This document shows positions 23,776-54,133 of a stretch of DNA of 64,000 nt, one piece after another. This stretch comes from a virus: IMG/VR virus record IMGVR_UViG_3300033066_000693, positions 64,001-128,000 of that record; one strand, written 5' to 3'. The translations under genes were made by a program, and so were the position numbers. The stretch's first letter is position 1. Each line of letters opens with the position of its first letter. The notes beneath the pieces were generated by a model. It was not told the origin of the DNA, searched no databases, and worked only from the letters and a program-made list of their open reading frames with translations.

Positions 23776-23786
23776 TCATGACTCCA

Positions 23787-25750: not shown

Positions 25751-25763
25751 GTTTCTGCTCCTT

Positions 25764-26228: not shown

Positions 26229-26237
26229 CGTCTCTCC

Positions 26238-33331: not shown

Positions 33332-33344
33332 TATCTTCTCCTAT

Positions 33345-33758: not shown

Positions 33759-33811
33759 TGAATCATTCCTTTCGAGTTAGCCTTTTATCGTCTTGGGGCG
33801 AGGTCTTTCTG

Positions 33812-34765
33812 TCAGCTATCACGTAAATCCCAATCGACCATGAGTTTGCACAAATCCTGCATAGAAGTGGAGGCTTTCCACCCGAGCTTCATTTCGGCCT
33901 TAGTGGAATCTCCTAGCAAATAGTTCACTTCGGACGGTCTGTAGTATTTTGGATCGATTACCACAAACTCTTCCCAATTAAGACCTACATAGCTAAACGC
34001 TTCCTTCAAGAAGTCTTTTACCGTATAGCTCTTGCCAGTTGCAATTACAAAATCGTCAGCCTTATCCTGCTGAAGCATAAGATACATCGCCTCTACGTAT
34101 TCCTTGGCATAACCCCAATCTCTTTTTGCGTCCAAGTTACCTAGCTTTAGATCCTTCTGAAGACCCTTCTTGATCCTAGCAACTGCTTTGGTAATCTTCT
34201 TTGTTACAAAGGTTTCGCCTCGTCTGGGACTTTCATGATTGAACAGAATCCCATTGCAAATGAACATGCCATAAGACTCTCGGTAGTTTCGGCATAGATA
34301 ATGAGCGCCTACTTTTCCGCAAGCATAGGGACTCTGCGGCAAGAAAGCGGTGTTCTCATTTTGAGGAGCAGGGGACGCCCCAAACATCTCGCTCGAAGAG
34401 GCATTATAGATCTTACAGCCCTTGATTCCAGCGCTTCTTACCGACTCAAGAACATTCAATGTTCCTAGAGTTGTAGACATTACTGTATCATGCGGTATCT
34501 CAAAACTTACCTTGACATGAGACATGGCTCCAAGGTTATAGACTTCATTAGGCCTAACCTCTTGAATGATTTTAGAAATGCTATTCTGATCCGTAAGATC
34601 TGCATAATGGAGATTGAGTCTATCAAAGATATGGTCAATTCGTCCTGTATTGAACGAGCTTGAACGTCGCACCGTGCCATGAACTTCATAGCCTTTAGAC
34701 AGAAGGAGTTCCGCTAGATATGAACCGTCTTGACCAGTGATGCCAGTAATCAATGCTTTGTACAT
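33812..34765 (-). CDS. gmd: GDP-mannose 4,6-dehydratase
   Basis: [58 protein letters not shown] and [18 protein letters not shown] are near-identical in pattern to bacterial Gmd. The likely start is the internal MYKALITG; the track ORF extends to 34795. Confidence 0.85.
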
Positions 34766-35670
34766 GCTAGCCCTCCTATGTTTTCTAAGAACCAATCATA
34801 GGTACTCTTGAGTCCAGCATCCAAATCCGTAAACGGCTCTAGCTCGAACTCAGAAGAAACCTTCTCTATACTAACGTCTTTTCTATGAATACCGTCTAGC
34901 CGTCCGTTGAAATACGTAGAACCAAAGAATCCTACAGTCCTCTGAACTGCTTGAGAGATTTCAGCGATACTATAGTTTCTAGGATTAGCAAAATTGAAAT
35001 CGCCATGCTTCCCCGTTTTCAAGAACTTAACAATCTGTTTTGTCAAATCGTCTACATAAGTAAGTTGTCTAAGAGCAAGACCAGATCCGTATAGCTCCAC
35101 GCCCTTGTCAGTATCTTTAGCGTTATGATATTTGAGCATGAGGGCTGGAATAACATGGCTCTTTTGCAAGTCAAACGTGTCATTAGGACCATACAGATTG
35201 CTTGGGTAGATTACCGTCCATTTGAATCCGTACTGTTGTCTCGCTGCGTCTATTTGCACTTGCATCATTCGTTTTGCGAATGCATAGCCATAGTTCGTCT
35301 GCTCTGGATATCCCTTATGCAAAACTTCTTCTTTGATAGGATAAGAGTCTACAACCGCAGGATATACGCAAGTGCTTGACATAGCAATGAGTTGTGGCAC
35401 TCTTAGCTGAGTACAAGCGTTGACAACGTTTGTATTGATTTTGAGGTTCTCAACAAAGTAATCATACAAGAAGTCTGAGTTATCTTTGATTCCTCCGACT
35501 CTTGCAGCCAAATGGATTACTACGTCAGGATTGCAGGTATTGAACACCATATTGGTGCTTTTTTCATCTCTAAGATCGCAGTCCGCTGAACTTAGATAAA
35601 TAGCTTCAGGAATAAGCTTCTTCAAAGATTTCCCAACCATTCCGCTTCCGCCTGTAACTAGAATTTTCAT
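34750..35670 (-). CDS. fcl: GDP-L-fucose synthase (GDP-4-keto-6-deoxymannose 3,5-epimerase/4-reductase)
   Basis: [35 protein letters not shown] and STYDWFLEN parallel E. coli Fcl ([30 protein letters not shown]). Confidence 0.75.
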
Positions 35671-35679
35671 GATTTCTCC

Positions 35680-36045
35680 TTAGAAGCAAAAACCTTCTTC
35701 AATAAGTTCATCGGGCATATCTTCCGGAAAGACAAATGTTTCGTCTGGGACTTTCTTTTCCGGCGGCGGCTGTATCGTGTAGTAAAGACCGTCAGGCTTT
35801 ATTTGCTTCTTAAACGATATTTGACAGTCCTTGAGAATGTTCTCAATCATTGGACTGTTTGCAGGATCAACTACAATTTGTTGCTCTACTCGCTTAAGCT
35901 GGGTATTATTGATTACAACATATACCTCGTCCATATTCATGCCAATGATATGAACTATTTTGGCTGGCTTCTTTCGTCTACGGGGCTTCTTAGTCTTAGG
36001 ACTGGATTTATCCGCAGATTTCTTTAGCGCTTTGTCTTTATGCAT
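35680..36045 (-). CDS. hypothetical protein, 121 aa, basic N-terminus
   Basis: A strong SD (AGGAGGT) lies 5 nt upstream of the ATG. Confidence 0.45.
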   Translation of the reverse strand: MHKDKALKKSADKSSPKTKKPRRRKKPAKIVHIIGMNMDEVYVVINNTQLKRVEQQIVVDPANSPMIENILKDCQISFKKQIKPDGLYYTIQPPPEKKVPDETFVFPEDMPDELIEEGFCF

Positions 36046-36119
36046 TCATAACCTCCTGAAACAAATGATATTGTGACTTCGGAGGTAAATATAACCAGAA
36101 AGCGCATTTCACCAAAATG

Positions 36120-36803
36120 TTATGGCAATCTTGGATTGAACCCTATTCTTTTTCTGCGCTCATACGTTCTACCGTCATATGTATAGAAGGACTCGTTCTT
36201 CAGATGAAGTTGGTCCTTTCCTGTATAGTCTATCCAAGAATGCTTGATTATGACGTTATCAATGTAGGTTGCTTTCCCCATTCCATAGGTAACATCATGG
36301 AATTCGTTGTCACAGTAAACACTAACGTAGCTTGGATGGTAAATATAGCCAAAGTAGTCATACATAGGCTTACCCATGATAGAAAGCGTATTCAAACGAG
36401 TTCCTACCCTGCCGTCATTGTAATGCAGAACCCCATTCAAATCAGGGTAGTATTTGAGCATGTCGTCTAGGATTATCTTGTCATATCCATGTTGAACCGG
36501 CGTCATATCGTCGCTAGCCAAAAGGACTATCTTCCAATCCTTATGGTGATGCATGTCTGCGTTTATGGCTTGAACCTTGGTTTTTGAGTCCCCATAGTAG
36601 TAGAATATGTTCTGCCGACCGCCATTGGCGGGGCTGAGCCACCACTTCATGTCCTCATTGTTCATCGTAGCGTCGTCCGAGTCCATAGAGACTACGAATT
36701 TTACCTTGGTCTGCCCAGAAAGCATACTGTAATATTTGTCAAACTGATTACGGAACTTATCAGGTCTTGCCCTAGTTGGAATCTTGATTAGCAGATCAAA
36801 CAT
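36120..36803 (-). CDS. hypothetical protein, 227 aa (possible glycosyltransferase)
   Basis: Tiling ORF in the glycan island. No confident motif. Confidence 0.3.
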   Translation of the reverse strand: MFDLLIKIPTRARPDKFRNQFDKYYSMLSGQTKVKFVVSMDSDDATMNNEDMKWWLSPANGGRQNIFYYYGDSKTKVQAINADMHHHKDWKIVLLASDDMTPVQHGYDKIILDDMLKYYPDLNGVLHYNDGRVGTRLNTLSIMGKPMYDYFGYIYHPSYVSVYCDNEFHDVTYGMGKATYIDNVIIKHSWIDYTGKDQLHLKNESFYTYDGRTYERRKRIGFNPRLP

Positions 36804-37263
36804 TTTGTCTCCAATACTTCTTGAGTATTCCTACATAGTCAGAGCAAATCCCATAAACCTTCACCTCTTCATACTTGGACATCAAAGATTCCAAAGACAA
36901 AAGCGGTATAATCGACTTCTCATCCGCTTCTTCCAAGTTGTGCGACCAAATCAGTTTGCAGTTATGAATAATGGTATGCTTCTCTTGTTCATGGAAGAAT
37001 ATTCTGAGGTTGCTGTCAATCAGTGTTCGTAGCGCAGAGAAGTTCTTGGTATGGACCCATAGCTTATCATTGCGGGCATACATCCACGCTGGATCGAACT
37101 CATACTGAGGGCCGTCATGCCCTAAGAAAAAACGCCCATCCTTTACCCATACGTCTACTTCTACTTCATATCCTGCGTCTATTGCTGCTTGAATATACTC
37201 AAGGCGATTTTCCATTTCTGGCTTGATATTATCAATGTTACCTCTATGGGATATCAATATCAT
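36796..37263 (-). CDS. glycerophosphodiester phosphodiesterase (GDPD)-like protein, short (155 aa)
   Basis: ISHRG...ENRLEYIQAAIDAGYEVEVDVWVKDGRFFLGHD matches the GDPD N-terminal signature (HRG...ENT...E.DV..TKDG..V..HD). Confidence 0.4.
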   Translation of the reverse strand: MILISHRGNIDNIKPEMENRLEYIQAAIDAGYEVEVDVWVKDGRFFLGHDGPQYEFDPAWMYARNDKLWVHTKNFSALRTLIDSNLRIFFHEQEKHTIIHNCKLIWSHNLEEADEKSIIPLLSLESLMSKYEEVKVYGICSDYVGILKKYWRQNV

Positions 37264-37628
37264 AGTTCCTCGATTCGTTTGGCTTTATCGTCAATTACTA
37301 TATCGAACAAAGGCTTCTTATCGCCCATAACAAGAGTATGGAATTTTGCATTCCATCGCTCAAGTTGTTCTATGGTCAGCTTGCGTAGCGCTTCAACCCT
37401 CTCGCCATTCTCGGGCTGCGTACTTCCTCTGGCGGTCCAATAAACTATAGTCCATCCTTCGTCATACATCTTGTTGATTTTGGCTATGTTCTTATGGCTT
37501 GGGATGGCGTCTTCGTAGATATATCCATTCTCATAGAAACATATCGTGTCGTCTATGTCAACATATGCTGTGGGGGTCTTGTTATTCTTACTGTGGGTTT
37601 CTTTCATGGTATGACTTCCAATAATCAT
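37260..37628 (-). CDS. HAD-superfamily phosphatase-like protein
   Basis: DxDxT motif (VDIDDTIC), motif II Thr (VYWTARG) and motif IV (GDKKPLFDIVIDD). Confidence 0.45.
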   Translation of the reverse strand: MIIGSHTMKETHSKNNKTPTAYVDIDDTICFYENGYIYEDAIPSHKNIAKINKMYDEGWTIVYWTARGSTQPENGERVEALRKLTIEQLERWNAKFHTLVMGDKKPLFDIVIDDKAKRIEEL

Positions 37629-38430
37629 AAGACCTTATCAAATCGACATGATCTTTGATGTGTTGCGGCGAGTTCAAAATCGTTTTCCATGCCTCAAAGG
37701 TTCTGACTTCTTCGGGAGTACCAAATACAGTAACGTACTTAGTAGGATAAACGTCCACCTTCAATCCGTCCTCAATCAAAAGATTGTACACCAAAGTTAC
37801 ATAGTATTCGCCATTGTAGTTGATGTTCTTATCAATGAGGGACTGGAAATACTTACGGACATAGCTGCCCTTCTTGAAGTAATACGTGCCTGTAGAAGCA
37901 TGCTCGCTTGAAGGATCATTCCAGTTGTACGGCTCTTTTTCCTTGATAGCCAAGACTCTACCATTGTCGTCTTTGATATGCGCCATAAAGGTAGGGCTGA
38001 GACGATGGGGATGAAATCCAACATGGCTCAAGATACAGCCGTCGCTATTGTTTGCCGCTACATACTCTTTGAAATGAGCATAATCCCAAATGTAAGGGTT
38101 ATCGCAGTACGTAATGATGACTTCTTTATCGTCCTCGATATACTGCATAACTTCTGAATCAAGAACAGTAAAGACTGGTCCCTTTTTATGAGGCGGGATG
38201 GAGAGTATTTTTGCGTTTGGAACCAATCCCAGCAAGACAGAACGCATTTCTGTTGTAGCTAGATGCGTCTCATTACAAATGAATACAAACTCGTCGTTCT
38301 TCGTATCAAACATCTCGCAGATGTATTCGATTATTCGCTTACCGCCAACTTTGATAAGAGGTTTTGGGTCGGTGTATCCCGCTCTGATAAAACGGTCCCC
38401 AGTTCCGGCCATTGGTACAATCACTCGCAT
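37588..38430 (-). CDS. sugar-phosphate (or small phospho-alcohol) nucleotidyltransferase, LicC/RfbF-like
   Basis: N-terminal MRVIVPMAGTGDRF...PKPLIKVGGKRIIEY is the NTP-transferase signature. Confidence 0.55.
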   Translation of the reverse strand: MRVIVPMAGTGDRFIRAGYTDPKPLIKVGGKRIIEYICEMFDTKNDEFVFICNETHLATTEMRSVLLGLVPNAKILSIPPHKKGPVFTVLDSEVMQYIEDDKEVIITYCDNPYIWDYAHFKEYVAANNSDGCILSHVGFHPHRLSPTFMAHIKDDNGRVLAIKEKEPYNWNDPSSEHASTGTYYFKKGSYVRKYFQSLIDKNINYNGEYYVTLVYNLLIEDGLKVDVYPTKYVTVFGTPEEVRTFEAWKTILNSPQHIKDHVDLIRSYDYWKSYHERNPQ

Positions 38431-38439
38431 GTTTTACCC

Positions 38440-39915
38440 TTATATAGACTGTCGATGTTTCTCAGATTCAAGACTCAACAAAGCCTTGACTTGATCATCG
38501 GTCAAATGTCTAACATTACCCATTTGGCCTCCAATACTATTAACATAGTTATGGGCTGCTATGGTTTCTCTCTTTGCAGGATTGTTATAGAAGATAACGG
38601 CGTCAGGAAATGGGTATAGAGCATAAGTATTCTTGTCCGCGAAAGAAATATCGAACTCTTCGAAACCGCCTACCCTGCATATATACTCTTTAGCGATTGC
38701 ATGAATATGGTTAAGAAGATCAACAGCTTCTTTTAAGTTATCGCTAGAGATAACAATGCCATGATTTTCTAAGAAGTAAACCGGCTTAGAAGGCAGTCCT
38801 TTGAAAGCCACAAAAAGGTCATGTCCCGGAGTCGCATAATCAACATACTCATAATCCAAGTCAGAGTACAGCGCAGAAATGATTTCCTTGGAGTTTTCTA
38901 GACAAAGAAGAAGAGTTGGATAAATGGCATGGGTATGGATTACATACTTCCTTAATAGCAAATGTACGCCAACTTCCATTGAGGGAGTTTTATGACGAAC
39001 ATGAACTTTCTTGAGGATTCCATTGAGTTCAGAATCGTTTTGGCTATTCAATATATCATGCTTCTCTGCTGGCATAATAACAGAATACCCGCGCAGACAA
39101 CTAATGTCTTTGATATCATACCCAGAAGCCTTGATAATCATGAAGTCGTCAGACTTTACAGAAATGTTACCGCCGCCGTTCTGACAAATATCTATGCTCT
39201 GACCAATGGTTTCAGCAATCTTCGTAAAGTCGCTAAAGTCAGAGAGGTAGTTTTCAATGAACTCCAAAAGTCCCTTAGGAACTTCCGTATCTTTCTTCTT
39301 CTCTACAGTTACGGCTATTTCAACCGTCTCATGCTTGTTACCAAGATTATGAATGGCAGAAATAGTGTCGATCTTAACAACTGCGTCTGCTAGACCAATC
39401 TGTTTATCTCTTAGATGTCCATTATCAAGGCTTCGTTTCTTGATAATCTCTAATACGTCATTGTACTTGTAGCCTCTTTCTTCGGTATCTCTTAGCAGCT
39501 TCCAATGCGTTATGAGGTTCCTATCAGCGTCAACAAATATCTTGAGGTCGATAAGCGATTGACTGATATCCGTGTAGAAGGCATGCAATCCTTCTATGAT
39601 AATGAATGACTGCGGCTCTATCTTCTTAGGCGGATTAAACCAGCCTGTCTTATGATTGTACACAGAACGATATATGGGCTTGCCAATCACCAAGTCCTGT
39701 AAATGAAAATCCCCAAGCTCTAGATTGTTTGCATTGGGGTTGAGGTGAGTTATGCTAGACCAAGCTGGATTGTGTCTTTCCCATTTGTGAAGATCGTCTG
39801 TACTTATGATAGCCGTATTATGTTCTCCGAAAAATAGCGAGATAATCTCAGCTAGAGTAGACTTACCAACTCCTGATTCGCCAGATATCCCTATAATGTA
39901 CGGCTTGCTAATCAT
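38440..39915 (-). CDS. Fusion protein: N-terminal uridine kinase/PRK-family P-loop kinase plus C-terminal class II aldolase/adducin (fuculose-P aldolase/ribulose-5-P epimerase) domain
   Basis: Walker A IIGISGESGVGKSTLAE at the N-terminus. The C-terminal half has NGGGNISVK, IIKASGYD and HTHAIYPT, characteristic of class II aldolases. Confidence 0.5.
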   Translation of the reverse strand: MISKPYIIGISGESGVGKSTLAEIISLFFGEHNTAIISTDDLHKWERHNPAWSSITHLNPNANNLELGDFHLQDLVIGKPIYRSVYNHKTGWFNPPKKIEPQSFIIIEGLHAFYTDISQSLIDLKIFVDADRNLITHWKLLRDTEERGYKYNDVLEIIKKRSLDNGHLRDKQIGLADAVVKIDTISAIHNLGNKHETVEIAVTVEKKKDTEVPKGLLEFIENYLSDFSDFTKIAETIGQSIDICQNGGGNISVKSDDFMIIKASGYDIKDISCLRGYSVIMPAEKHDILNSQNDSELNGILKKVHVRHKTPSMEVGVHLLLRKYVIHTHAIYPTLLLCLENSKEIISALYSDLDYEYVDYATPGHDLFVAFKGLPSKPVYFLENHGIVISSDNLKEAVDLLNHIHAIAKEYICRVGGFEEFDISFADKNTYALYPFPDAVIFYNNPAKRETIAAHNYVNSIGGQMGNVRHLTDDQVKALLSLESEKHRQSI

Positions 39916-40817
39916 TAGTCTAACATACCAACCTTTCTTAGAAGATTTTCAGTTGCTCTCGTTCTAATCTTGCAGTTTTCTTCAGAAAGAAAATGAGGAA
40001 AAGGACGAACCGCATGAAGGTTCTTGTATTGACCTGTTCTTATTCTTTCTTCGTCAACCTCATATTCGCCTTTTTCTGCATTATACATAGACGAATGTAC
40101 ATGATTCCCGTCCGTTCTTCCAACTCCGCTCTTTAGGAAGAACCCTGTAAACTTTACGTCTTTGTTGAATATGCTATTTCGCAAAGCCCTCGTAGATCTA
40201 AGCTCTTCAGCGCACCACAAGTTATGCTGCTCAATAGGATCGCATTCTCTAAATGCCCTAGTTCCATTGTATCGCTTACTTGTTACTATGTTGCTAATGC
40301 TTTCCTCGAACCCGCCTTCTATGTCCAAAGCATACTTCATTAGGCCGCCCTTAGCGCAATGATATTGAGCAGGGAGGTTCGTATCGTGTCCAAGATCTTT
40401 TTGGTTCTGCGGCGTAATAACCTTGTTGGCCCAGCCGTATTGCGTTCCATTTAGCTGCGTGATTCCGTCTGCGTCAAGATGCAAATAATGGTCGTCAGCA
40501 AAGTCGGCTATTTGCGTTGTTAGCCAGTCGGTTGCCAATGGGTACATATCCATATCACCGATTAGCCAAGTCGTATCAGGCTCTAAGGTAGGCCAAAAGA
40601 ACTTGCTCCATGTAATTTGAATCAATAGAGGCCAGTTTGGCATAATGGGAACCTCGATTACCTTCCCATACTCTTCGCTCATATTTGTCTTCGATCTATC
40701 TCCAAATAACAAGCACACGGGTTCTATCCCAAGCTTTGTCTTGAAGACCTTGGCATTCAAGTTCCAGAATACGCTAAACGTTTCTGAAGTAGAAAATATG
40801 ACTTTATCAATCTTCAC
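39915..40817 (-). CDS. putative glycosyltransferase, paralog A1 (300 aa) of the 42360-43265 gene
   Basis: About 45% identical in pattern to the 301-aa ORF at 42360-43265 (…IEPVCLLFGD.SKTNMSEEYGK… GDMDMYPL / GDMDLLPL). Confidence 0.35.
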   Translation of the reverse strand: MKIDKVIFSTSETFSVFWNLNAKVFKTKLGIEPVCLLFGDRSKTNMSEEYGKVIEVPIMPNWPLLIQITWSKFFWPTLEPDTTWLIGDMDMYPLATDWLTTQIADFADDHYLHLDADGITQLNGTQYGWANKVITPQNQKDLGHDTNLPAQYHCAKGGLMKYALDIEGGFEESISNIVTSKRYNGTRAFRECDPIEQHNLWCAEELRSTRALRNSIFNKDVKFTGFFLKSGVGRTDGNHVHSSMYNAEKGEYEVDEERIRTGQYKNLHAVRPFPHFLSEENCKIRTRATENLLRKVGMLD

Positions 40818-41698
40818 AATCCAGCCTCTTCTACTTGATATACGCTTTTGAAGTTCTTCTTGCCAATAAGCGAAGGAAAACGGCTAAAAGACGAATAACG
40901 ATTAGACGCTACATTTAGGCTGCTCTTAGACATTGTTGCCATATCAAAATATGTCTGTTGCCATTTTGGTAGCATGGGCGGAATTGATATGATGTTCTTG
41001 TTCTTTTTAACAAGGAAGTCCACAAACTCCGCCTTCTTCTCGTCCTCGTCGCTGCATATGAAAAACGTATCGTAGACCTTTACCGCCTTTTCCATGCACT
41101 TGTAAGTAAGCTCATTTAGTTCTTCAATCTGAGTAGAATGAATAAAGGTTCCGTCTGTAGCTTCTGGGCGAACCTTATCTCCTCTTCGAATATGAAGAGT
41201 CATAAACTTTTCTGGTAGAGTGCTTAGATACGCATTTATAGTATCGCAAAATCCAAACTCTTTCGCAACCTCGTCAAAACGATTCTGAAACTCTTCAAAA
41301 GTCAACCTGTCTTGAAGATGCTTAAGCCAAAATGCACGAGGGTCCGTTGTTCCTCCTACAGCGTGTTCAAACGTTGGATAAGTAGCTCGTATGAGCTTCA
41401 TTTCTTCTGGATCTACAATCCATTCTTTTAGAAACTTACCCTGAATCTCAACGTAAGGAACAACAATGGTATTGGACGGAAACCTTATATACTTTCTTAC
41501 ATTTTCAAGTTGCGTATCTATATAACGGAAAGATGGATCTAGCTGTCTGATTGTTCTATTTTCGTGCCCTCGATAAGTAGTCCATGTAACGAAAATATCT
41601 GTCTGCAAAATCCTTGCATATGTTGCGACATATAGGATATCAGAGAGTCTATCTCCAAGGCCGCTTTCCGTAGGTTTAGTCCAAAATATAGGCATCAA
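40814..41698 (-). CDS. fucosyltransferase-superfamily protein (GT11/GT23-like)
   Basis: LHIRRGDKV matches the HxRRxD motif shared by alpha1,2- and alpha1,6-fucosyltransferases. It sits in the same locus as gmd/fcl. Confidence 0.45.
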   Translation of the reverse strand: MMPIFWTKPTESGLGDRLSDILYVATYARILQTDIFVTWTTYRGHENRTIRQLDPSFRYIDTQLENVRKYIRFPSNTIVVPYVEIQGKFLKEWIVDPEEMKLIRATYPTFEHAVGGTTDPRAFWLKHLQDRLTFEEFQNRFDEVAKEFGFCDTINAYLSTLPEKFMTLHIRRGDKVRPEATDGTFIHSTQIEELNELTYKCMEKAVKVYDTFFICSDEDEKKAEFVDFLVKKNKNIISIPPMLPKWQQTYFDMATMSKSSLNVASNRYSSFSRFPSLIGKKNFKSVYQVEEAGL

Positions 41699-42348: not shown

Positions 42349-42359
42349 GAGAACCTTTC

Positions 42360-43265: not shown

Positions 43266-43277
43266 AGTTGTTTCGCT

Positions 43278-43952: not shown

Positions 43953-44004
43953 GCTTCGTCTCCTTCATTATGATATGGTATTCGACTCATTGATTTCATT
44001 CCCT

Positions 44005-47028: not shown

Positions 47029-47852
47029 ACTATTTTCCCTCTTCTGGACAAGCGAATAGCTCGCTGTTTTTCAAAGTTCTTTACCCATTTATTCATTGCA
47101 GCGGTCCTTTTATCTATCGGAGCATTGGGCAAAAGCCCCTTCGGTATCTGCTCATTCTGGTCTGCTAACCGCTGTATGCCTTTACCTTCTTCTCGAATAG
47201 CCCATTGCACAAAATGCTTATTACCTCTGTTATAGCCGCTCGCCATTATCCAAGGCCTTCCTAGGTCTTTTAGAACAACGCTGCTATTATCAAAGGGGAA
47301 GTATATGAAACTCTCTTTACGATACTGGTTCTTAAGATTTCGGAGTTGTACCTCAGGATTATCGGAGGTATTGAGTTTTTCGCCCATCTCTCTACAGAAG
47401 GTTCCTCGTATGAAGCTGGGAGCTAACCAGAAGTCTTGTTGAACGTTTTTCCAAGCTCGCAATGCTACTTGCTGGACATGCGGAGCTATAAAGAACTGGT
47501 TGAAGGACGACATCTTGAACGGAGCTAAAAGTTCCCAATCGTCCTCTAAATGGAAGTTATAGTATGTTTCTATCTTAGAGAAGCACCATTTTATAGCCGA
47601 AGCGAAGTTTGGAGTATCTGGCATATTGACAATAACATTGCCAAAATACGTTCTAGCTATAGCAGCGACTTCTTCTCTTTTATGGTCGTCTTTGCCGTCA
47701 GGAAACCTATCTATATTGAGATATAGAGTCACTTGTTTGAAATCTATGCCTTGTAAGTTCTTTGTAAAGGAATCATAAGTAGCCTTAATCAACTCTGGAC
47801 GAGGCATAGCAGTTGTAGTAAAACTAAGCGTTTTCTCGGTTATTGGGTACAT
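47025..47852 (-). CDS. hypothetical protein, paralog C1 (275 aa; FHLEDDW motif), possible nucleotide-sugar transferase
   Basis: Shares TTTAMPRPELI and (F)HLEDDW(E/L)LL blocks with 47855-48628. Confidence 0.3.
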   Translation of the reverse strand: MYPITEKTLSFTTTAMPRPELIKATYDSFTKNLQGIDFKQVTLYLNIDRFPDGKDDHKREEVAAIARTYFGNVIVNMPDTPNFASAIKWCFSKIETYYNFHLEDDWELLAPFKMSSFNQFFIAPHVQQVALRAWKNVQQDFWLAPSFIRGTFCREMGEKLNTSDNPEVQLRNLKNQYRKESFIYFPFDNSSVVLKDLGRPWIMASGYNRGNKHFVQWAIREEGKGIQRLADQNEQIPKGLLPNAPIDKRTAAMNKWVKNFEKQRAIRLSRRGKIV

Positions 47853-47854
47853 AG

Positions 47855-48628
47855 TTAGAGCTTAGACCTATCAATCTCTGCGTTCTGGTCTCTTATCTTT
47901 TGCTCTCTTTCCAGAGCTAATGGGTTCCGTACAATGTTCCATTTGGTGAACTCGTCGCCACCTCTCGCAAAGTTCGTCTTCTTCATCCAAGTTCTACCAG
48001 TATCTTGTAGAATGACTTTCTCCTCTTCGAACGGCCAATAGATAAAAACATCTTCTGGCTTATATGGGTTGGCAGCCCTGATTTGATTCTCAGGATTCTT
48101 TGAAGGATTCAATGATTTTGCCATAAGGTTGCAAAAAGAAGTCCTCATGATATTGGGACTTAGACAGAACCTTGGATTGGATATCTTCCATGCGCGAAAT
48201 GAAACTTGCATGATCTTCTCGTTATCGAAGAACTCGCCTATGCTCTCAGGAATATCAGAAAGCAATAGCCAATCATCCTCTAAATGGAAGACGAACTCAG
48301 AGTTGGCATTCGTGAACAACCACTGAACAGCCAAAGAGAAGTTCGGTATGTTAGTAACCAGAGTCTCTTCGTTGCGACAGACAACTTTGCCAAAGAACGT
48401 TCTAGCTATTCTAATGACTTCGGCGGTTTCTGCTACGCCTGTTGTATCTGGCAAGCGGTCTACGCTCAAGAATAGAGTCATCTTCTTGAAATCGAGCCAC
48501 GGCATTCGTTCTTGAAACGATTGATATGTAGGCCCTATAAGCTCGGGCCTTGGCATTGCGGTTGTAGTTATACAGGTATTCGAAGTAGAAGGTCTGCTCA
48601 TGCTACAATTATCGGGCAATTGCAGCAA
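47855..48628 (-). CDS. hypothetical protein, paralog C2 (257 aa)
   Basis: Paralogous to 47025-47852. Confidence 0.3.
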   Translation of the reverse strand: MLQLPDNCSMSRPSTSNTCITTTAMPRPELIGPTYQSFQERMPWLDFKKMTLFLSVDRLPDTTGVAETAEVIRIARTFFGKVVCRNEETLVTNIPNFSLAVQWLFTNANSEFVFHLEDDWLLLSDIPESIGEFFDNEKIMQVSFRAWKISNPRFCLSPNIMRTSFCNLMAKSLNPSKNPENQIRAANPYKPEDVFIYWPFEEEKVILQDTGRTWMKKTNFARGGDEFTKWNIVRNPLALEREQKIRDQNAEIDRSKL

Positions 48629-49584
48629 TCTACTCTACGAACTTCTGTTGTTAGAGATTCCCGTACCGCAATAGTCTCATTGCAGTTAGGACACTTGGTA
48701 TTTTGCAGACCGTCTTGACTATACACGCTTTGTTGATAAACGTGCTTTGACTTAGACGAATACAGCTTGGCTATCTTCTGAAGCAATCCGTCAGAAGTCA
48801 CCTGACACAGTACGTCTTTATAGGCAGGATAGATCTTGAGAAGGTGAAGCGGAACAAGCGGGGTCTTGCTCATAAACTCGGCAAAAGCCAAATGCTCTCC
48901 CACAGTTGCGTCATGATATACAGGAATGCTTATTTCAACATGCAATCTGGAAACGGCATAATCTATGCAGTCAAGTACGGTTTTTTCAAATGCCCTAGCC
49001 ACAGACTGATATCTCTGTTCATTGCCCTTCCAGTCTATGTTCATGGCAGACGCCACCTCGCATAGCTTAGCCCATATAGGAAGCTCGGCAAACGCATTGG
49101 TTTTCAGAATCAGTTCTATCCCTTTGCTTTTGCAAGCAAGTCCAAGATCTAAAATGTACTCAAAGTAAACAATAGGCTCGTTGTATGTGAAACAAACAGC
49201 TAAACAGTTCTTGGCAACCGCCAAATCAACTACTTGTTGCGGAGATAAAGATGCGGCTGGCTGCTCGTCGTCTTTTTGACTGACCATCCAGTTTTGACAA
49301 AAAGAACAAGCCATCGAACAACCATAACCTCCAATAGACAAGGTTCTAAGGTTTGGCTTGTAATGATAGATTGGCTTCTTTTCTATTGGCTCAACCGCAG
49401 CATGAGATATCTTCCCATAAGCACGCAGATTGATGCCGTCTCCTGCTTGACGAACCTGACAAACACCTGTTTGTCCCGTGCGAAGCTTGCATTTATGAGG
49501 ACAGACTAAACATTCAAAGCGACCGTCGCCAGTCGCTTGATATGTTATCGCTTGAGCATTTTGGACGGCTTCAGCATGAGCCAT
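48598..49584 (-). CDS. radical SAM enzyme, PflA-like/AmmeMemoRadiSam-type
   Basis: CSMACSFCQNW is a Cx3Cx2C cluster. It is preceded by N-terminal CLVCPHKCKL...GVCQVR and EPIEKKPIYHYKPNLRTLSIGGYGC, which closely follows the AmmeMemoRadiSam radical SAM signature. Confidence 0.6.
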   Translation of the reverse strand: MAHAEAVQNAQAITYQATGDGRFECLVCPHKCKLRTGQTGVCQVRQAGDGINLRAYGKISHAAVEPIEKKPIYHYKPNLRTLSIGGYGCSMACSFCQNWMVSQKDDEQPAASLSPQQVVDLAVAKNCLAVCFTYNEPIVYFEYILDLGLACKSKGIELILKTNAFAELPIWAKLCEVASAMNIDWKGNEQRYQSVARAFEKTVLDCIDYAVSRLHVEISIPVYHDATVGEHLAFAEFMSKTPLVPLHLLKIYPAYKDVLCQVTSDGLLQKIAKLYSSKSKHVYQQSVYSQDGLQNTKCPNCNETIAVRESLTTEVRRVDCCNCPIIVA

Positions 49585-49868
49585 ACTTCGTCCGTATTCT
49601 TAAGGTCTGAGTTAAGTTGAGGAGGGTTCTTGATGATAGAGTAAAAAAGGTTCTCAGCGCATAGACCCTGACAAAGAGGAAGGCTATCTTTGTGGATATT
49701 GACATACATTGCTTTGGATACATTGTCGTCAAACCAAAAACGAAGAGACTCTCTAATAGACTGGACAACGCAAGCGGCGTCATAGCCTTGACGAAAAGCT
49801 GCGTCATACTGATCTAAGTATATAAGTTTGATCTCTTTGATCATGAGGCTCCTCCCTGATTGTTTCAA
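49545..49868 (-). CDS. hypothetical protein, 107 aa
   Basis: Tiling ORF. Confidence 0.3.
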   Translation of the reverse strand: MKQSGRSLMIKEIKLIYLDQYDAAFRQGYDAACVVQSIRESLRFWFDDNVSKAMYVNIHKDSLPLCQGLCAENLFYSIIKNPPQLNSDLKNTDEVWLMLKPSKMLKR

Positions 49869-49891
49869 GGAAGAGTGCCTCAGACCCTTTA

Positions 49892-50311
49892 TTATGCATG
49901 CACTCGGAGCTTAATAGTTGTGACTCCGCTGTTGTCAGTATTTTGAGAGTCCCACTGATAAGGTCCGTTTTGCACCATCTTCATTACAACATCTTGTGCA
50001 TAATGCATCACAAGTTTTGGGAAATTCTGATCCCAATGGTACTTATCGTTTCCCGCCACATGAATATTGTAGGTTCCGTCTTCCTCGCGAGAAAGACCAA
50101 TCTCGCTATTGACCTTCATTGTCATATTTCTTTGGATGACAATGTTGGCCTTGGCTTCTCTACGTTCTGCGCCATTCAGCCCCACAGCCTCGTTGTGAAG
50201 GCTGTACTTATACCCAACCTTCTCCAGCGCCGTAAGAACAGACACCTCATGCTGAACCTTCAATTGACATGCTACAGTATGAAAAACGCTCATATTTACT
50301 CCATTACCCAA
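49892..50311 (-). CDS. hypothetical protein, 139 aa
   Basis: Tiling ORF. Confidence 0.3.
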   Translation of the reverse strand: MGNGVNMSVFHTVACQLKVQHEVSVLTALEKVGYKYSLHNEAVGLNGAERREAKANIVIQRNMTMKVNSEIGLSREEDGTYNIHVAGNDKYHWDQNFPKLVMHYAQDVVMKMVQNGPYQWDSQNTDNSGVTTIKLRVHA

Positions 50312-50787
50312 GTTAGCTTGCGAAGTCTATAGAAGTATCGAATAATTTCGTATACAGCCCCATCTCCTGCCCTTGCATGAGCGCCGTACATGGCATGCTC
50401 ATAAACCTCAGGGATAGCATTCGATGGACAACCAGAAAACGCCGCTTCGCAAATACACTTGTAATCGTTCTCGGCGTCACCAATATAGGCAACATTATCC
50501 CAAGTTAACTCATTCTCCAATAGATGTTTGCTCAAATCAGCAAACTTATCCTTTGAACCGGAGATAATAGTATGTCCCCATTTACCCATTTTAGCATGGA
50601 TTACCCTATCTGTAGAACCAGTTATAATGACGATCTTGAAACCGTCCTTAGCAGCCCTATAGATGCCATGCATGTCTCTTGTATTGAAGTTCTTAGACAA
50701 ACCGCCGTTCTCTGCAACCAAGTAGTTGCCGTCCGTAATGGTTCCGTCCACATCAATAGCGATAAGTTTAACTGCGTCGATACTCAT
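50296..50787 (-). CDS. KdsC-family HAD phosphatase (KDO-8-P/KDN-9-P phosphatase type)
   Basis: KLIAIDVDGTITDG (DxDGT). The ~163-aa size, later GSTDRV and GDAENDYK motifs match the KdsC subfamily. Confidence 0.65.
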   Translation of the reverse strand: MSIDAVKLIAIDVDGTITDGNYLVAENGGLSKNFNTRDMHGIYRAAKDGFKIVIITGSTDRVIHAKMGKWGHTIISGSKDKFADLSKHLLENELTWDNVAYIGDAENDYKCICEAAFSGCPSNAIPEVYEHAMYGAHARAGDGAVYEIIRYFYRLRKLTWVME

Positions 50788-50795
50788 TGAGTGCC

Positions 50796-51665
50796 TTAGA
50801 TTGAAGAGTCTTTGTCAGAGCGAAGTTTCTTCCTCTGTTGTAGCTCTTCTTCGTCTGGCAGAGGGTCAGAGAACGTAAAACCACGTCGAACGTTCTTCAG
50901 ATCCCTGCACAGCCTTCGCAGCCCTTCAGGTTCAAGACTTGCGGCAGCGTCGGTATGCTTGAGCGTTCTGTCGTCTACAAAGTGTCTCTCAATAAACTCT
51001 GCGCCCAAGATCCAACCTGCTACGTCTGCCGCAATACCGTATCCATGATTGCTAAAGCCTATGCGGATTCCTAGCTCTCCATAGAACTCAACAAACTTTT
51101 TGATATCACAGAGATGTAGCTTTTCAAATGGACATGGATAAATGCTAGTGCAATGATATAGAACGAATCTCTTTGGGTCTTTTCTGGCAAACTCTGCCAT
51201 CTTATCAATCTCGGCATGAGACGACATTCCAGTAGAAATATGAATATCACCCTTGTACTCTGAGAAAAGATACTGAAGCATTTCCATGTCATTATTGCAT
51301 GGGCTTCCAACCTTAATAAACTCAGGATTGATAGAAACGATCTCTCTTGCAGAGGTCATATCCCAAACAGAACAAACATACTTGATGCCAATGAGCTTAC
51401 AATATTCAGCTATCTCTCTGTGCTGATCAACCGTAAGCTCTAAAGCCTTACGATGTTCCAAATACGTTTTGCCATAAGAGAATATCTGGTTTGGATGAGG
51501 CTGGTGCTTAAGGGACTCGGACACGCACTCGTCTGGATTCCGCTTCTGAAACTTTGCATAGTCTGCTCCGCAGATCTTGGCTAGATTTGCCAAGTTCTTT
51601 GCTCGCTCCATAGAGCCAAGATGTACGCATCCTATCTCCGCAATAACCTTGGCTTCATGAATCAT
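50796..51665 (-). CDS. NeuB-family nonulosonate (sialic/KDN-type) synthase, short form without C-terminal AFP/SAF domain
   Basis: VIAEIGCVHLGSMERAKNLANLAKICGADYAKFQKR matches the NeuB signature IAEIGxNHNG...GADAVKFQ. Length 289 aa. Confidence 0.6.
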   Translation of the reverse strand: MIHEAKVIAEIGCVHLGSMERAKNLANLAKICGADYAKFQKRNPDECVSESLKHQPHPNQIFSYGKTYLEHRKALELTVDQHREIAEYCKLIGIKYVCSVWDMTSAREIVSINPEFIKVGSPCNNDMEMLQYLFSEYKGDIHISTGMSSHAEIDKMAEFARKDPKRFVLYHCTSIYPCPFEKLHLCDIKKFVEFYGELGIRIGFSNHGYGIAADVAGWILGAEFIERHFVDDRTLKHTDAAASLEPEGLRRLCRDLKNVRRGFTFSDPLPDEEELQQRKKLRSDKDSSI

Positions 51666-52372
51666 AGAAATCCCCCGTAATGGTTAAACATCTTGGACAT
51701 TATTGCTAGATCGTCCATATTATCAATCTGCATGCTTTCAAACTGCGGCGTTTCATACAGATAAGTGTTTCCAGATACTCGTATCTTTGTCTTCAAAAAA
51801 CACTTGCATTTGGTTATGTAGATATTACCATTGTCATGAAAGTAATAATCGCTTTCTTTGAGTTCTTGCCTCATAGGGCGATTCTTTAGATCATAGGTGC
51901 AAAAAGGAACTTCTGAAACAGCATTTTTGCGCCAGAAAAACGGCGTCACCTTTTCTACTGTTATCAAGCTATCATAATCTTCTATTACTGCTTTCTCAAT
52001 ACACTTGCTAAGCAGATCAAACCTGCGAGCAGGAGAAGTTCCTTGCAGAATTACAAGATAGTCATAATCTGGATAGTGTTCCAGAAGATGCTCGATAGCT
52101 GCTTCCGTCTTAGACGTAGGAGTACACAACTCGTCTGGTCTTTGTAGAAACTCAAATCTTTCGTCTAGCGAAGAAAAAGCCTCTATCTTCTTACGAACAT
52201 CAGGATCGTTAGAAGAAGTTACGACCTTATCAATAGACAAGCAACGAGAAGCTGCCATGAGCGTCCACTGAAGTAGCGAATAATCTCCGATCTTCCTGAA
52301 CAGCTTGCCGGGAAGACCAACAGAGCCAGTTTTTCCCGGCACGAATGCGAGAACCTTTTTATCTCGAATCAT
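51662..52372 (-). CDS. CMP-nonulosonate (CMP-NeuAc/CMP-KDN/CMP-KDO-type) cytidylyltransferase
   Basis: KVLAFVPGKTGSVGLPGKLFRKIGDYSLLQW matches the acylneuraminate cytidylyltransferase N-terminal signature. Confidence 0.6.
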   Translation of the reverse strand: MIRDKKVLAFVPGKTGSVGLPGKLFRKIGDYSLLQWTLMAASRCLSIDKVVTSSNDPDVRKKIEAFSSLDERFEFLQRPDELCTPTSKTEAAIEHLLEHYPDYDYLVILQGTSPARRFDLLSKCIEKAVIEDYDSLITVEKVTPFFWRKNAVSEVPFCTYDLKNRPMRQELKESDYYFHDNGNIYITKCKCFLKTKIRVSGNTYLYETPQFESMQIDNMDDLAIMSKMFNHYGGFL

Positions 52373-52989
52373 TTAGCCTTCTTCTTTCTCTTATATGTTC
52401 TCTTAGGAGCAACTATTTCTATTACTGGAACCAAAGACAAGGCTTCTCTGCGAATCATTTCTTTTGTAGGGGCAGGAGCATAATATCGAAAATTGAACTT
52501 CAAATTAAGAACGTTCAACTTGTTTTGAAGCTGTTCAACAGCGATCCCAACCATAAACTTTTCTACAAAACCTACATCTGCCCCATTCATAGAATTCACA
52601 TGTCTAATGTATTCAACGCATGATAAAATATCCTCAAAAATCTGGATTTCACTAGAAAACAAACCTAGTTCATGAACATATCTCATAAACAAAGGATCTA
52701 TTCTAAATTCTCGCCTCTCTTTAGAAGAGGCTTGCTTATCTATATGCCGTAGAGTGTTTATCACACACGACATCCTATCTTCTCTATCCCTGCCTTTATG
52801 AATAAGACCGCTTGATAACTGCTTTGTTATTTCCTTATCAAGGAATCTTCTCTCTTTCGCAACTTGCTTGGCGCTCATCTTTGGAAGGCGCTTTGCGGGC
52901 GGCATCTTATCAAGAGTTTCTTTTGCAGCTTCCATTTGACGAGTCAAAGAGAACATATCTACAGGCACTACAAACTTTTCTTTGTTCAT
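52369..52989 (-). CDS. hypothetical protein, 207 aa
   Basis: Start taken at the internal ATG 52987-52989 (MNKEKF), which forms an ATGA overlap with the upstream gene's stop. The track ORF extends to 53154 and would overlap the upstream gene by 169 nt. Confidence 0.35.
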   Translation of the reverse strand: MNKEKFVVPVDMFSLTRQMEAAKETLDKMPPAKRLPKMSAKQVAKERRFLDKEITKQLSSGLIHKGRDREDRMSCVINTLRHIDKQASSKERREFRIDPLFMRYVHELGLFSSEIQIFEDILSCVEYIRHVNSMNGADVGFVEKFMVGIAVEQLQNKLNVLNLKFNFRYYAPAPTKEMIRREALSLVPVIEIVAPKRTYKRKKKAK

Positions 52990-53756
52990 GGGCTTCCTTT
53001 CTTTCTGCTTCCATATTGGTTCAGCACTTCTTCCATCGTCATCTTTGGAAAGACATCCAGAATCCCTATTGGGGATACGTAGATGATTCTTCCTTTGGTT
53101 GCCTCGGGATTGACCTCGGCAAAATGATTCCAGTACAGGTTCATCTGTACGCAATGAATATCCACTGGCTTGTCTTTGATTGTTCCCTGATTAGGCGTAG
53201 AGAAGATACGATTGTTATATTCAATGGCTCTCGTCTCTCCGGGGAACTGCCAAAAGTATCGGTTCTTGCCCTCATAGCAGCAATCGTGCCCGAGAAGAAC
53301 AATAGGGTCGCATCCCATGATCCAAGCAAAGTGCATGGCCGTCGCCTGAGAAGTCCTTGCTCCTATGATCGGAATCTCAGGATCGTCTGTCAACTTTAGA
53401 TTCTCTTTATGGAATAGTAACTGTCCGCCGGGCTGAGGAGTGGCCCATTGTCTGTGGTCAAAAAATACCACTTCCTCAGGACGAAAATGCCCAACATGGT
53501 TCTTGAGCTTTTCTTCATATAGAAGCTTTGTACACTTACTATCTCTAGCTGTGATTTGCCAGTAGTTCCATGTCTTTACGCCGTCGTCGTCGGTTACGAA
53601 ATAATCGCAGTCAGGGAACTTGAGGATTCCCGAGTTGGCGGTAAAGGTTACATAGTCCTTGGTTATAGATGGACTTATATGCCTAAGAGAAGGCCCTGCT
53701 CCTGCTACAAAAGCGAGCTTGCCTTTATGCTTGTCTTTGAGACTTGATAGAGTCAT
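52986..53756 (-). CDS. Cst-II/GT42-like sialyltransferase or DUF115 (Maf/MptE-like) nonulosonate transferase
   Basis: LAFVAGAGPSLRHI parallels Cst-II VIIAGNGPSLKEI. RTSQATAMHFAWIMGCDPIVLLGHDCCY parallels ITSGVYMCAVAIALGYKEIYLSGIDFY. Confidence 0.45.
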   Translation of the reverse strand: MTLSSLKDKHKGKLAFVAGAGPSLRHISPSITKDYVTFTANSGILKFPDCDYFVTDDDGVKTWNYWQITARDSKCTKLLYEEKLKNHVGHFRPEEVVFFDHRQWATPQPGGQLLFHKENLKLTDDPEIPIIGARTSQATAMHFAWIMGCDPIVLLGHDCCYEGKNRYFWQFPGETRAIEYNNRIFSTPNQGTIKDKPVDIHCVQMNLYWNHFAEVNPEATKGRIIYVSPIGILDVFPKMTMEEVLNQYGSRKKGSP

Positions 53757-54133
53757 GAGAGGTCCAATATGCTAAACTTGCTATCTTCTTCAGTAACTTC
53801 TTTCATTTCTTCATTGTGGAATGGCTGAACAATTATGCATTGATACTTGTTCTTCCTAGGGTTGTAAACGTAAGAGAAAAACATGGCGTCAAAGTTTCCA
53901 ACTCCTATGATAGAAATAACGCATGGAGCATTCAAGGTTTCTTTGTCATAGACGATGGCTCCTCGTCTCATTTCATTCTCTACAAACGCTCCTTGTAGGG
54001 CTGTATCTACATTTAGCTCATAAGTAATCACTCGTCGTTCAAAGTTGATATTGACAATGCTTAGCCCTCTGAATGGGAGGCGGGCGCTCTTATAGTGCAA
54101 GGAATCTTGTTGAGAAGCTATAGGGAGATTCAT
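53753..54133 (-). CDS. hypothetical protein, 126 aa
   Basis: Tiling ORF. Confidence 0.3.
   Translation of the reverse strand: MNLPIASQQDSLHYKSARLPFRGLSIVNINFERRVITYELNVDTALQGAFVENEMRRGAIVYDKETLNAPCVISIIGVGNFDAMFFSYVYNPRKNKYQCIIVQPFHNEEMKEVTEEDSKFSILDLS

Follow-up and report, generated by a model that had tools for sequence, protein, structure and literature searches.

The window analysed here is a stretch of 64,000 nucleotides, positions 64,001 to 128,000 of the IMG/VR virus record IMGVR_UViG_3300033066_000693, and the system of interest is a run of glycan-related genes at window positions 33812-54133. On balance, and with modest confidence, we regard this run as a genuine and self-contained island with which an uncultivated jumbo phage builds glycans in the cytoplasm, the virion proteins being the favoured target; that the jumbo element is a phage is in itself highly probable. 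An earlier reading of the same DNA (the original prediction) had placed about 30 co-oriented glycan genes at these positions, and its limits agree with open reading frame (ORF) ends, 33812 being the stop of gmd and 54133 the start of a 126-amino acid (aa) ORF. The genes form an unbroken, tightly packed run of ∼30, all on the minus strand, and at least 20 of them can be assigned from profile or fold evidence to sugar-nucleotide, glycosyltransferase (GT) or methyltransferase functions. Comparison of the island ORFs with Pfam, NCBIfam and PHROG profiles thus bears out the proposal of a glycan-biosynthesis island with named pathways.

None of 30 island proteins contains a hydrophobic 19-mer with a Kyte-Doolittle mean as high as 1.6, and the Pfam matches of the island include no Wzx, Wzy, phosphoglycosyltransferase, chain-length/export or ABC family. 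Since neither transmembrane (TM)-like segments nor a flippase, polymerase, initiating transferase or ABC exporter were found there, assembly of the glycan would be cytoplasmic and carried out by soluble enzymes. Nine soluble GT-type proteins are encoded, namely a GT of a PHROG family, two members of a family here called A, an HxRRxD/GT11-like protein, two GT2 enzymes, two members of family C and an MptE/Maf-type protein, alongside two candidate transferases (family B) and two methyltransferases (TylF and class I).

A greedy ORF call over the window yielded 77 ORFs, 73 of them on the minus strand; of the other four, at least two are shadows of minus-strand genes. Coding density is ∼0.99, 38 of 72 gene junctions overlap (15 in the ATGA style) and a Shine-Dalgarno-like tetramer precedes 45 of 73 starts (62%, against a background of 18%); dense coding, overlapping junctions and these tetramers together indicate a prokaryotic-type genome. 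GC content ranges from 41 to 49% over the window and from 41 to 44% within the island, and the composition shows no break. Neither the island nor the first 25 kb had a megablast match among 50,697 phage records and 72,556 plasmids, suggesting a lineage without a close sequenced relative in the phage and plasmid collections searched; neither the lineage nor the island is described in the literature consulted on moraphages and marine megaphages or in a jumbo-phage review.

Pathways to activated sugars

The gmd gene (33812-34795), whose true start is likely the ATG at 34765 (MYKALITG...), encodes a GDP-mannose 4,6-dehydratase (PF16363, E=8e-131) that passes the equivalog model TIGR01472 with 467.8 bits (cut-off 415). 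The fcl-like gene (34750-35670) encodes a predicted GDP-4-keto-6-deoxymannose 3,5-epimerase/4-reductase, or GDP-L-fucose synthase (GFS), which aligns over its full length with the human enzyme (4e5y, E=8.5e-54). Its STC, YAFAK and KSHVIP motifs align with Cys116, Tyr143, Lys147 and His186 of human GFS, all four of which are conserved and which act there as general base (Cys116), reductase pair (Tyr143/Lys147) and general acid (His186) (PMC12362431). The protein falls below the NCBIfam equivalog NF047922 (211 bits against a cut-off of 500) and appears to be a divergent member of its family, with nothing in its sequence that speaks against GDP-L-fucose as the predicted product. A suspected loss of the catalytic His was rejected; the site at which GPHDNF is replaced by GPNDTF corresponds to His177, a position occupied variously by N, Y, H, E or D among viral Fcl homologues, and the catalytic His186 is kept in SHVIP. 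By profile and by conserved residues, Gmd and Fcl are therefore predicted to convert GDP-mannose to GDP-L-fucose, as had been proposed.

A candidate GT11-like fucosyltransferase is encoded at 40814-41698. Alignment of 13 members of its family showed the motif H169-x-R171-R172-G-D174-K (HIRRGDK in the window protein) and a C-terminal S269-x-F271-S272 to be invariant. GT11, the alpha-1,2-fucosyltransferase family, is weakly matched by four of the 13 (best E=0.0077), and the window protein is matched by phrog_2644, annotated as 'glycosyltransferase' (E=4.9e-4); it has no Pfam match, and sequence and profile searches of the PDB returned nothing meaningful for it. A fucosyltransferase role is plausible, the HxRRxD motif named in the original prediction having held across the family and the profile matches being weak.

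A second pathway would be provided by a 163-aa HAD phosphatase of the KdsC/KDN-9-P-phosphatase type (50296-50787), a 289-aa NeuB-family nonulosonate (9-phosphate) synthase (50796-51665; PF03102, E=3.5e-61) and a CMP-nonulosonate synthetase, or cytidylyltransferase (51662-52372; CTP_transf_3, PF02348, E=1.2e-9; PseF-like, 49.6 bits). The phosphatase gene adjoins that of the synthase, which is in turn adjacent to the CTP_transf_3 gene, and both pairings are conserved in relatives. The phosphatase scores 88 bits with KdsC, 81.8 with the YrbI subfamily and 79.7 with KDN-9-P phosphatase, all below the respective cut-offs, and its PDB matches are YrbI/KdsC enzymes and the 164-aa chains 3e81, 3e8m and 4hgo (E∼1e-14), which we take to be the KDN-9-P phosphatase BT1713 of Bacteroides thetaiotaomicron. 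The synthase, in which no C-terminal SAF/AFP-like domain was matched, likewise scores far below the equivalog cut-offs (NeuB 175 bits, PseI 133 bits), and its PDB matches include PseI, Neisseria meningitidis NeuB and the 290-aa Leptospira enzyme 6ncs. The profiles thus show these three enzymes to constitute a predicted three-step route to a CMP-activated nine-carbon keto-sugar, and the combination of synthase, phosphatase and cytidylyltransferase implies a 9-phosphorylated intermediate. Because a phosphatase is present and no NeuC, PseB/C/H/G or LegB/C/H/G was found among the Pfam and NCBIfam matches of the island ORFs, KDN formed from mannose-6-phosphate would be the simplest and most economical identity for the sugar.

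The product of this route may be transferred by an MptE-like (Maf/DUF115-type) protein encoded at 52986-53756, a bare domain of 256 aa that matches PF01973 with 35.6 bits (cut-off 34.6); single-sequence and profile searches of PDB sequences gave no match. The same Pfam family is recorded on its counterparts in relatives, where the MptE-like gene always heads the CMP-transferase/NeuB module. Maf glycosyltransferases are described, in one account, as placing nonulosonic acids on Ser/Thr residues of proteins (PMC11339370). In the NeuB/KdsC/CMP-synthetase/GT42-like block that had been proposed, the first three members are upheld, and the 'GT42-like' protein is instead this MptE-like, Maf-type PF01973 protein.

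Three further genes could activate a third sugar. They encode a small HAD-type phosphatase with the DxDxT motif 'DIDDTI' (37260-37628; TIGR01689 capsule-biosynthesis phosphatase, E=0.0024), a sugar-1-phosphate nucleotidylyltransferase (37588-38430; PF00483, 31.7 bits against a cut-off of 21.2, with weak matches to the N-terminal domains of GlmU/RmlA) and a fusion of a PRK/uridine-kinase-like kinase to a class II aldolase/epimerase-like domain (38440-39915; PRK, E=5.6e-32; Aldolase_II, E=4.9e-14). The fusion protein contains the P-loop GESGVGKST and the metal-site motifs E..H, HTH and NHG, and its nearest PDB chains are cyanobacterial phosphoribulokinases (E=2.6e-36). A fusion with 65% identity is carried by the sister contig L013. 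Among 185,579 representative prokaryote genomes its sole match was the 2-kb contig L101 (DATKHH010000060.1), binned in a Candidatus Saccharimonadia metagenome-assembled genome (MAG) and 58% identical to the kinase half; this contig could be phage DNA placed in the wrong bin, or could hint at the host, and gives no lead to host or origin.

Glycosyltransferase families and their viral homologues

All-against-all BLASTP of the ORFs revealed three pairs of paralogues (33%, 26% and 41% identity) for which no Pfam model exists. The two copies of family A (39915-40817 and 42360-43265) are 33% identical (E=2e-44) and have two genes between them. None of 195 homologues is annotated, a G-D-x-D motif is invariant among them, and no tblastn match was obtained in the 50,697 GenBank phage records. 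The AlphaFold2 (AF2) model has a pLDDT of 95.4, and its top Foldseek matches are LgtC, WbbM, ABO transferases and glycogenin, suggesting a GT resembling the retaining GT-A type. Family C copies are tandem (47025-47852 and 47855-48628; 41% identity, E=1.5e-61); the likely start of the second is at 48601, which leaves a 4-nt overlap with the radical SAM gene, and identical contigs call it as 248 aa. Its 84 homologues lack any Pfam domain and share an invariant E103-D-D-W106 (the EDDW motif), and the AF2 model (pLDDT 91.6) matches the GT-A enzymes SpsA, POMGnT1 and LH3/ColGalT1, its best viral structural match being a Tupanvirus ORFan, followed by GT2-like proteins of giant viruses and cyanophages. 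Modelled structures thus show a GT-A fold for both families.

Family B is of a different kind. Its copies (44005-44844 and 44841-45626) are tandem, 26% identical and characterized by an RDxDS-motif domain. Copy 1 has no Pfam, NCBIfam or PHROG match, a PDB search gave no match, and hhalign found no relation to families A and C. There are 5,253 cluster representatives at E≤1e-3, and 16 of 40 homologues are fused to TPR repeats, with fusions to GT2 or sulfotransferase domains also seen. The family, which is also present in the 735-kb phage LR756501 and in Synechococcus phage S-SRM01, lacks demonstrated transferase homology and can be regarded as a candidate transferase only. Of the three tandem pairs of paralogous transferases proposed originally, the pairing and the GT-A character of A and C therefore stand, whereas the copies of A are not in tandem and the transferase nature of B is not borne out.

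Conventional GTs and modifying enzymes accompany these families. A member of a phage GT family at 36120-36803 matches phrog_14945 'glycosyltransferase' (E=2.3e-15) and has a homologue of 78% identity in L013. Both GT2 enzymes are short and soluble; that at 45610-46407 includes a Glyco_transf_7C region (E=2.2e-10; Glycos_transf_2, E=8.4e-7) and matches chondroitin synthase K4CP and beta4GalT7 in the PDB, and that at 46408-47028 (Glycos_transf_2, E=2.3e-9) is 71-81% identical in all close relatives. A class I SAM-dependent methyltransferase (41695-42348; Methyltransf_23, E=8.5e-12; Methyltransf_11, E=7.9e-10) and a TylF-family, possibly sugar, O-methyltransferase (43278-43952; PF05711, E=1e-34; 120 bits, cut-off 23) complete this set. 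Profile matches confirm the earlier calls for both methyltransferases and both GT2 enzymes, as they do for the nucleotidyltransferase and the kinase-aldolase fusion. The protein at 48598-49584 is a radical SAM enzyme of AmmeMemoRadiSam type (PF04055, E=2.4e-11; CX3CX2C at CSMACSFC) and not PflA-like as had been suggested; TIGR04337 is its best model (191.5 bits, below the cut-off of 220), against only 23 bits for PflA. The ORFs scanned in the window include no match to an AMMECR1 or Memo family.

Homologues of family C that are 33-40% identical sit within the head-morphogenesis modules of two unrelated lineages of small phages. In contig L103 (37.8 kb; positions 9599-13476) the order is terminase, portal, capsid, cement protein, family C (33% identical), CX3CX2C protein, Methyltransf_21, two ORFs and head-tail joining protein; contig L020 shares this order, at 50-75% identity, from terminase up to and including the CX3CX2C protein, and the shorter L052 shares it up to where family C begins. 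In L104 (38 kb; 9265-14706) portal is followed by family C, GT2, Radical_SAM, Methyltransf_24, Mu F and capsid, and the terminase, portal and capsid families differ from those of L103. These cassettes comprise the same functional set as the core of the island (radical SAM, C, C, GT2, GT2, TylF). Pfam supports the radical SAM assignment of the window and L104 proteins, that of L103 being so called on its CX3CX2C motif alone, and no BLASTP similarity was detectable among the three. Head-module cassettes of these types also hold further GT-like ORFs, and the C-terminal half of the L103 cement protein is S/T-rich. Family C is virus-wide; 80 viral loci in all were retrieved when IMG/VR was scanned with its pattern, and another homologue was met in a contig that bears the giant-virus markers DVNP and TFIIS.

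Six related contigs of 101-494 kb in IMG/VR carry a co-linear island, close relatives in the family C scan being 65-77% identical, and a 495,113-bp ENA contig has the same order from UvrD and methylase to MptE, CMP-transferase and NeuB. In the sister contig L013 (256,820 bp; IMGVR_UViG_3300020577_007233) the order is identical at 45-78% identity, in a comparison that spans DNA methylase to PHROG GT, where the locus ends with gmd and fcl lying outside it. The core of the clade can be written as methylase-(126 aa)-MptE-CMP-transferase-NeuB-HAD-(DUF1257)-99-107-aa-(radical SAM)-C-C-GT2-GT2/7C-B, the DNA methylase being directly upstream of the island in all relatives. The radical SAM and DUF1257 genes are missing from one sub-lineage (L015, L017, L018), and the distal part is variable, with Gmd/Fcl, PRK-aldolase, family A, HxRRxD and TylF genes exchanged in some relatives for DegT, Gly_transf_sug or Methyltransf_21 genes. 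In 24 of the loci examined, family C and NeuB are no more than 10 kb apart, and a cassette of family C, NeuB and small HAD recurs in unrelated viral contigs. The order MptE-CMP-transferase-NeuB-HAD is also kept, at 38-56% identity, in a 54-kb contig with different GT1 and GT9 genes. A further island, at positions 1-10663 of the 230-kb phage-like contig L095, contains GT11, GT10, GT25, GT2, two Methyltransf_21, Gmd-like SDR proteins and family C, and adjoins adenylosuccinate synthase and CsrA genes.

Possible targets of the glycan and comparison with known systems

In the reading that we favour, the phage's own virion proteins would be glycosylated in the cytoplasm, before or during assembly, with a methylated glycan containing fucose and nonulosonate. 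Mannose-6-phosphate for KDN would be drawn from the same host pool as supplies GDP-mannose, the MptE-like enzyme would transfer the nonulosonate, and the radical SAM enzyme would modify either a sugar or the acceptor. Proteins, and most probably those of the virion, are preferred as acceptors because homologues occur in head modules, because the candidate nonulosonate transferase has a Maf-type domain and because family B is found fused to TPR repeats.

Several observations weigh against this reading. The window contains no capsid, portal or tail gene that could supply an acceptor, and the neighbours of the island are replication genes (UvrD and DNA methylase upstream, IMPDH-like and TopA genes downstream), not capsid genes. 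The head-module context is that of homologues only 33-40% identical, in much smaller phages. The roles proposed for the fucosyltransferase and the MptE-type transferase rest on weak profile matches, and the KdsC and KDN-9-P models, being alike in score and below their cut-offs, do not discriminate KDN from Neu5Ac or another nonulosonate. The Ser/Thr/Pro-rich ORFs at 1606-10573, originally put forward as virion acceptors, are weakly founded in that role, their S+T content being 15-19%. The 458-aa protein at 1606-2982 (minus strand) does match phrog_38766 'virion structural protein', through its Hint domain, and the ORF at 3000-6386 has a weak C-terminal vWA match; no informative matches were found for the 1128-aa and 1396-aa ORFs, the latter (S/T-rich, 6383-10573) having no match anywhere, including by tblastn of the phage collection.

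The main rival, which is viable though we consider it rather improbable, holds that the soluble enzymes use lipid-carrier and export machinery of the host to alter its lipopolysaccharide (LPS), capsule, S-layer or appendage glycans, thereby blocking superinfection or the re-adsorption of progeny to debris. Many bacterial O-unit transferases have no membrane segments, and the usual substrates of Maf-type enzymes are host flagellins. Because LPS and capsule units on lipid carriers are also assembled by peripheral transferases devoid of TM segments, an island without membrane proteins is compatible with a host-surface target as well; the island also sits with early-type replication genes and not with structural genes. 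A function of this kind is the one suggested for the 24 'LPS' genes that the lytic cyanomyovirus P-SSM2 carries (PMC1079782). However, the island encodes no initiating phosphoglycosyltransferase, flippase, polymerase, ligase or GtrA/B/C-type membrane protein, its core GT family recurs inside the capsid-assembly modules of other phages, and the same family occurs in a contig with giant-virus markers, a setting to which bacterial envelope machinery would be irrelevant, and finds its best viral fold match in Tupanvirus. Transfer of the sugars to hydroxymethylated bases of the phage DNA, as a means of evading restriction, is a very unlikely use of the island. It would suit the neighbouring genes of DNA metabolism (the methylase directly upstream and a dNMP kinase at 24893-25810), and phage GTs are reported to build multi-sugar glycans on DNA (Pyle et al., 2024, as cited in PMC12619734), but the window ORFs scanned include no gene for a dCMP/dUMP hydroxymethylase or a thymidylate-synthase-like protein, and the Maf-type domain and head-module contexts point to proteins as acceptors. 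We know of no report of DNA glycans with nonulosonate, fucose or methyl groups.

Least probable of all is that the DNA is not from a phage, and represents instead a small-genome bacterium, a giant plasmid or a mis-binned cellular contig with an ordinary surface-polysaccharide locus. The bacterial-type flanking genes (DnaX, delta, beta, TopA, DnaJ, UvrD, RecA, sigma factor and CCA-adding enzyme), the lack of a capsid or terminase gene within the window and the 2-kb homologous fragment in the Saccharimonadia MAG could be taken to favour it. Against it stand a strand bias that is nearly uniform over 64 kb (73 of 77 ORFs), a tRNA scan of the window that found no tRNA gene, the absence of ribosomal-protein families from the ORFs scanned, and flanks with replication and recombination genes of PHROG type (a Holliday-junction resolvase among them), an HNH endonuclease, Gp157 and the Hint-domain virion-protein family. 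A PD-(D/E)XK nuclease, a Toprim primase, RecA, UvrD and a DNA methylase are encoded in the flanks too. Proteins of the window are found on a JGI contig of 257,887 bp, the six related contigs are all viral records, and the published, curated huge phage LR756508 holds a distant version of the island. Identical contigs (L092, L098) carry, outside the window, a split DnaE, Ro60/TROVE-vWA, NAMPT and a class II aminoacyl-tRNA synthetase, a neighbourhood typical of huge phages, and the genes inserted in the split DnaE include a Dam-type methylase. Bacterial-type replisomes, aminoacyl-tRNA synthetases and NAMPT are typical of huge phages, and matches of the DnaJ-like protein include Lak and LR75xxxx phages. 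Plasmids gave no megablast match, and genes for polysaccharide export or polymerization were not found in the island, so that its original assignment to a phage-type genome, and not to a bacterial LPS/capsule locus, is sustained.

P-SSM2, a lytic T4-like cyanomyovirus, has 24 putative LPS genes whose function is inferred only (Sullivan et al., 2005; PMC1079782); the lineage described here differs in having a bacterial-type replisome and in not being T4-like, and a NeuB query matched three of the 50,697 GenBank phage records, none of them P-SSM2. Since other large aquatic phage contigs also have comparable islands, with GT10/GT11/GT25 or with the same nonulosonate module, the density of glycosylation genes was overstated when it was called extraordinary for a phage. 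In mycobacteriophages, capsid and tail-tube proteins are reported to be modified by the phages' own cytoplasmic GTs, whose genes lie beside capsid genes (Freeman et al., 2023, as cited in PMC12619734). This arrangement is that of family C in L103, L020, L052 and L104. Mycobacteriophages carry few GTs and are not known to encode sugar-nucleotide synthesis, whereas the island, which has no structural genes beside it, combines 9-11 GT-type genes with at least two complete pathways to activated sugars. Chlorovirus PBCV-1 encodes its own GMD and GMER and bears methylated, fucose-containing capsid glycans, and mimivirus has fibril glycans. The island resembles these giant-virus systems in its virus-encoded Gmd and Fcl, soluble GTs and sugar methylation, all in the cytoplasm, and differs from them in being prokaryotic (Shine-Dalgarno sequences, overlapping genes, bacterial-type enzymes) and in possessing a nonulosonate module with a Maf-type transferase.

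Bacterial nonulosonate/Maf systems and the KDN pathway of B. thetaiotaomicron share with the island a NeuB-family synthase, a KdsC-family phosphatase, a CMP-transferase and a PF01973 transferase, but in the island NeuB lacks SAF, the MptE-like protein lacks Maf flanking domains, there is no flagellin context and scores fall below equivalog cut-offs. In the huge phage LR756508 (484 kb), a stretch of ∼11 kb encodes a family C domain, Fcl, Gmd, NeuB and small HAD, at 29-50% identity and in another gene order; the 40 kb examined yielded no MptE-like, PRK-aldolase or family A gene. In contrast to GtrABC seroconversion cassettes the island has no membrane proteins, and in contrast to bacterial O-antigen and capsule loci it has no Wzx/Wzy or ABC transporter, initiating phosphoglycosyltransferase or export-family matches.

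Phage sugar-gene clusters, virion glycosylation in mycobacteriophages and autonomous glycosylation by giant viruses are already known, and the island does not constitute a new category. What is new is the combination of GDP-fucose synthesis, a phosphatase-dependent nonulosonate route, a bare Maf-type transferase, a PRK-aldolase fusion and three Pfam-less families, conserved in a clade of jumbo and huge phages, together with the association of a core GT-A family with capsid modules across very different viruses. These features suggest that self-glycosylation by phages is commoner and more elaborate than the few studied cases indicate. To our knowledge, virion glycosylation has been shown experimentally in few phage systems only, and the words glycosylation and glycan are absent from a 2026 review of jumbo-phage biology.

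A broader proposal, which is tentative and which we think possible but doubtful, is that family C, radical SAM and O-methyltransferase form a virus-specific toolkit common to phage contigs of 14-38 kb, jumbo phages of 250-500 kb and contigs with giant-virus markers, and that in the present clade this toolkit has been expanded with GDP-fucose and CMP-KDN-type synthesis and a Maf-type transferase, so as to coat capsids with methylated, nonulosonate-capped glycans. If true, it would provide the first nonulosonate-decorated phage virions and would make virion glycosylation widespread in environmental phages. A product that coats the particle would bear on the means by which large phages escape non-productive adsorption, grazing or host recognition, as well as on the recurrence of 'LPS genes' in aquatic phages and on the role of three large Pfam-less protein families (A, B and C).

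Other genes of the island and its flanks

Several small island genes have less certain functions. The 155-aa protein at 36796-37263, proposed to be GDPD-like, has the N-terminal motif HRG..EN..E.DV expected from that proposal, although it has no Pfam or NCBIfam match at E≤1, its sole match being the unannotated family phrog_34507 (E=1.7e-33). A conserved protein of 99-107 aa (49545-49868), translationally coupled to the radical SAM gene, shows 50-66% identity in 10 related loci and has no family match. It precedes the radical SAM gene, as does a DUF1257 protein (49892-50311; PF06868, E=4.9e-7) that is conserved in most relatives, and in most relatives the three are kept together inside the glycan island. 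The 126-aa ORF between the DNA methylase and the MptE-like gene (53753-54133) is 34-54% identical in L007, L013 and L014. The slot at 52369-52989 is variable between relatives; its 206-aa ORF is called identically in identical contigs and has no homologue in other loci. The 121-aa ORF at 35680-36045, with a Lys/Arg-rich N-terminus, has neither a Pfam match nor a homologue in related loci.

Scanning of positions 31000-50900 for sigma-70 promoters gave 33 candidates against a shuffled expectation of 41.5, and the corresponding scan for intrinsic terminators gave 22 against 14.2; both counts are at or near expectation and are uninformative on operon structure. Near gmd, and separated from it by a 137-aa ORF, is a gene for a CBS-less enzyme of the IMPDH/GMP-reductase family (32249-33331, minus strand), on which the IMPDH and GuaC models score similarly and which might tune the guanine-nucleotide supply for GDP-sugars. 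A text match to 'NeuB' in a Bacillus phage paper proved to be the author name Neubauer and was discarded.

Two sugar-related genes lie outside the island, also on the minus strand. One, at 16728-17663, encodes an NDP-sugar epimerase/dehydratase (phrog_540, E=1e-62), and the other, at 46-1596, encodes a DUF6734 protein (PF20508, E=4.7e-33) with a weak GT2-like C-terminal domain (Glycos_transf_2, E=0.0019) and adjoins the large S/T-rich ORFs. A bacterial-type set for replication and maintenance occupies 18281-29846 and includes a DnaX-like clamp loader, delta-like and beta-like proteins, a sigma-like factor, TopA and the DnaJ-like protein. The protein of 1606-2982 consists of an (SP)n tract and a run of ∼60 prolines followed by the Hint/intein-like domain (CFAFGT...VHNS), and independent assemblies of the same phage break inside its proline repeat. 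Beyond the S/T-rich ORFs, a 918-aa protein at 10579-13335 (minus strand) has a CCA-adding tRNA nucleotidyltransferase domain at residues ∼310-730, N- and C-terminal extensions of ∼200-300 residues each and a Gln/Pro-rich linker.

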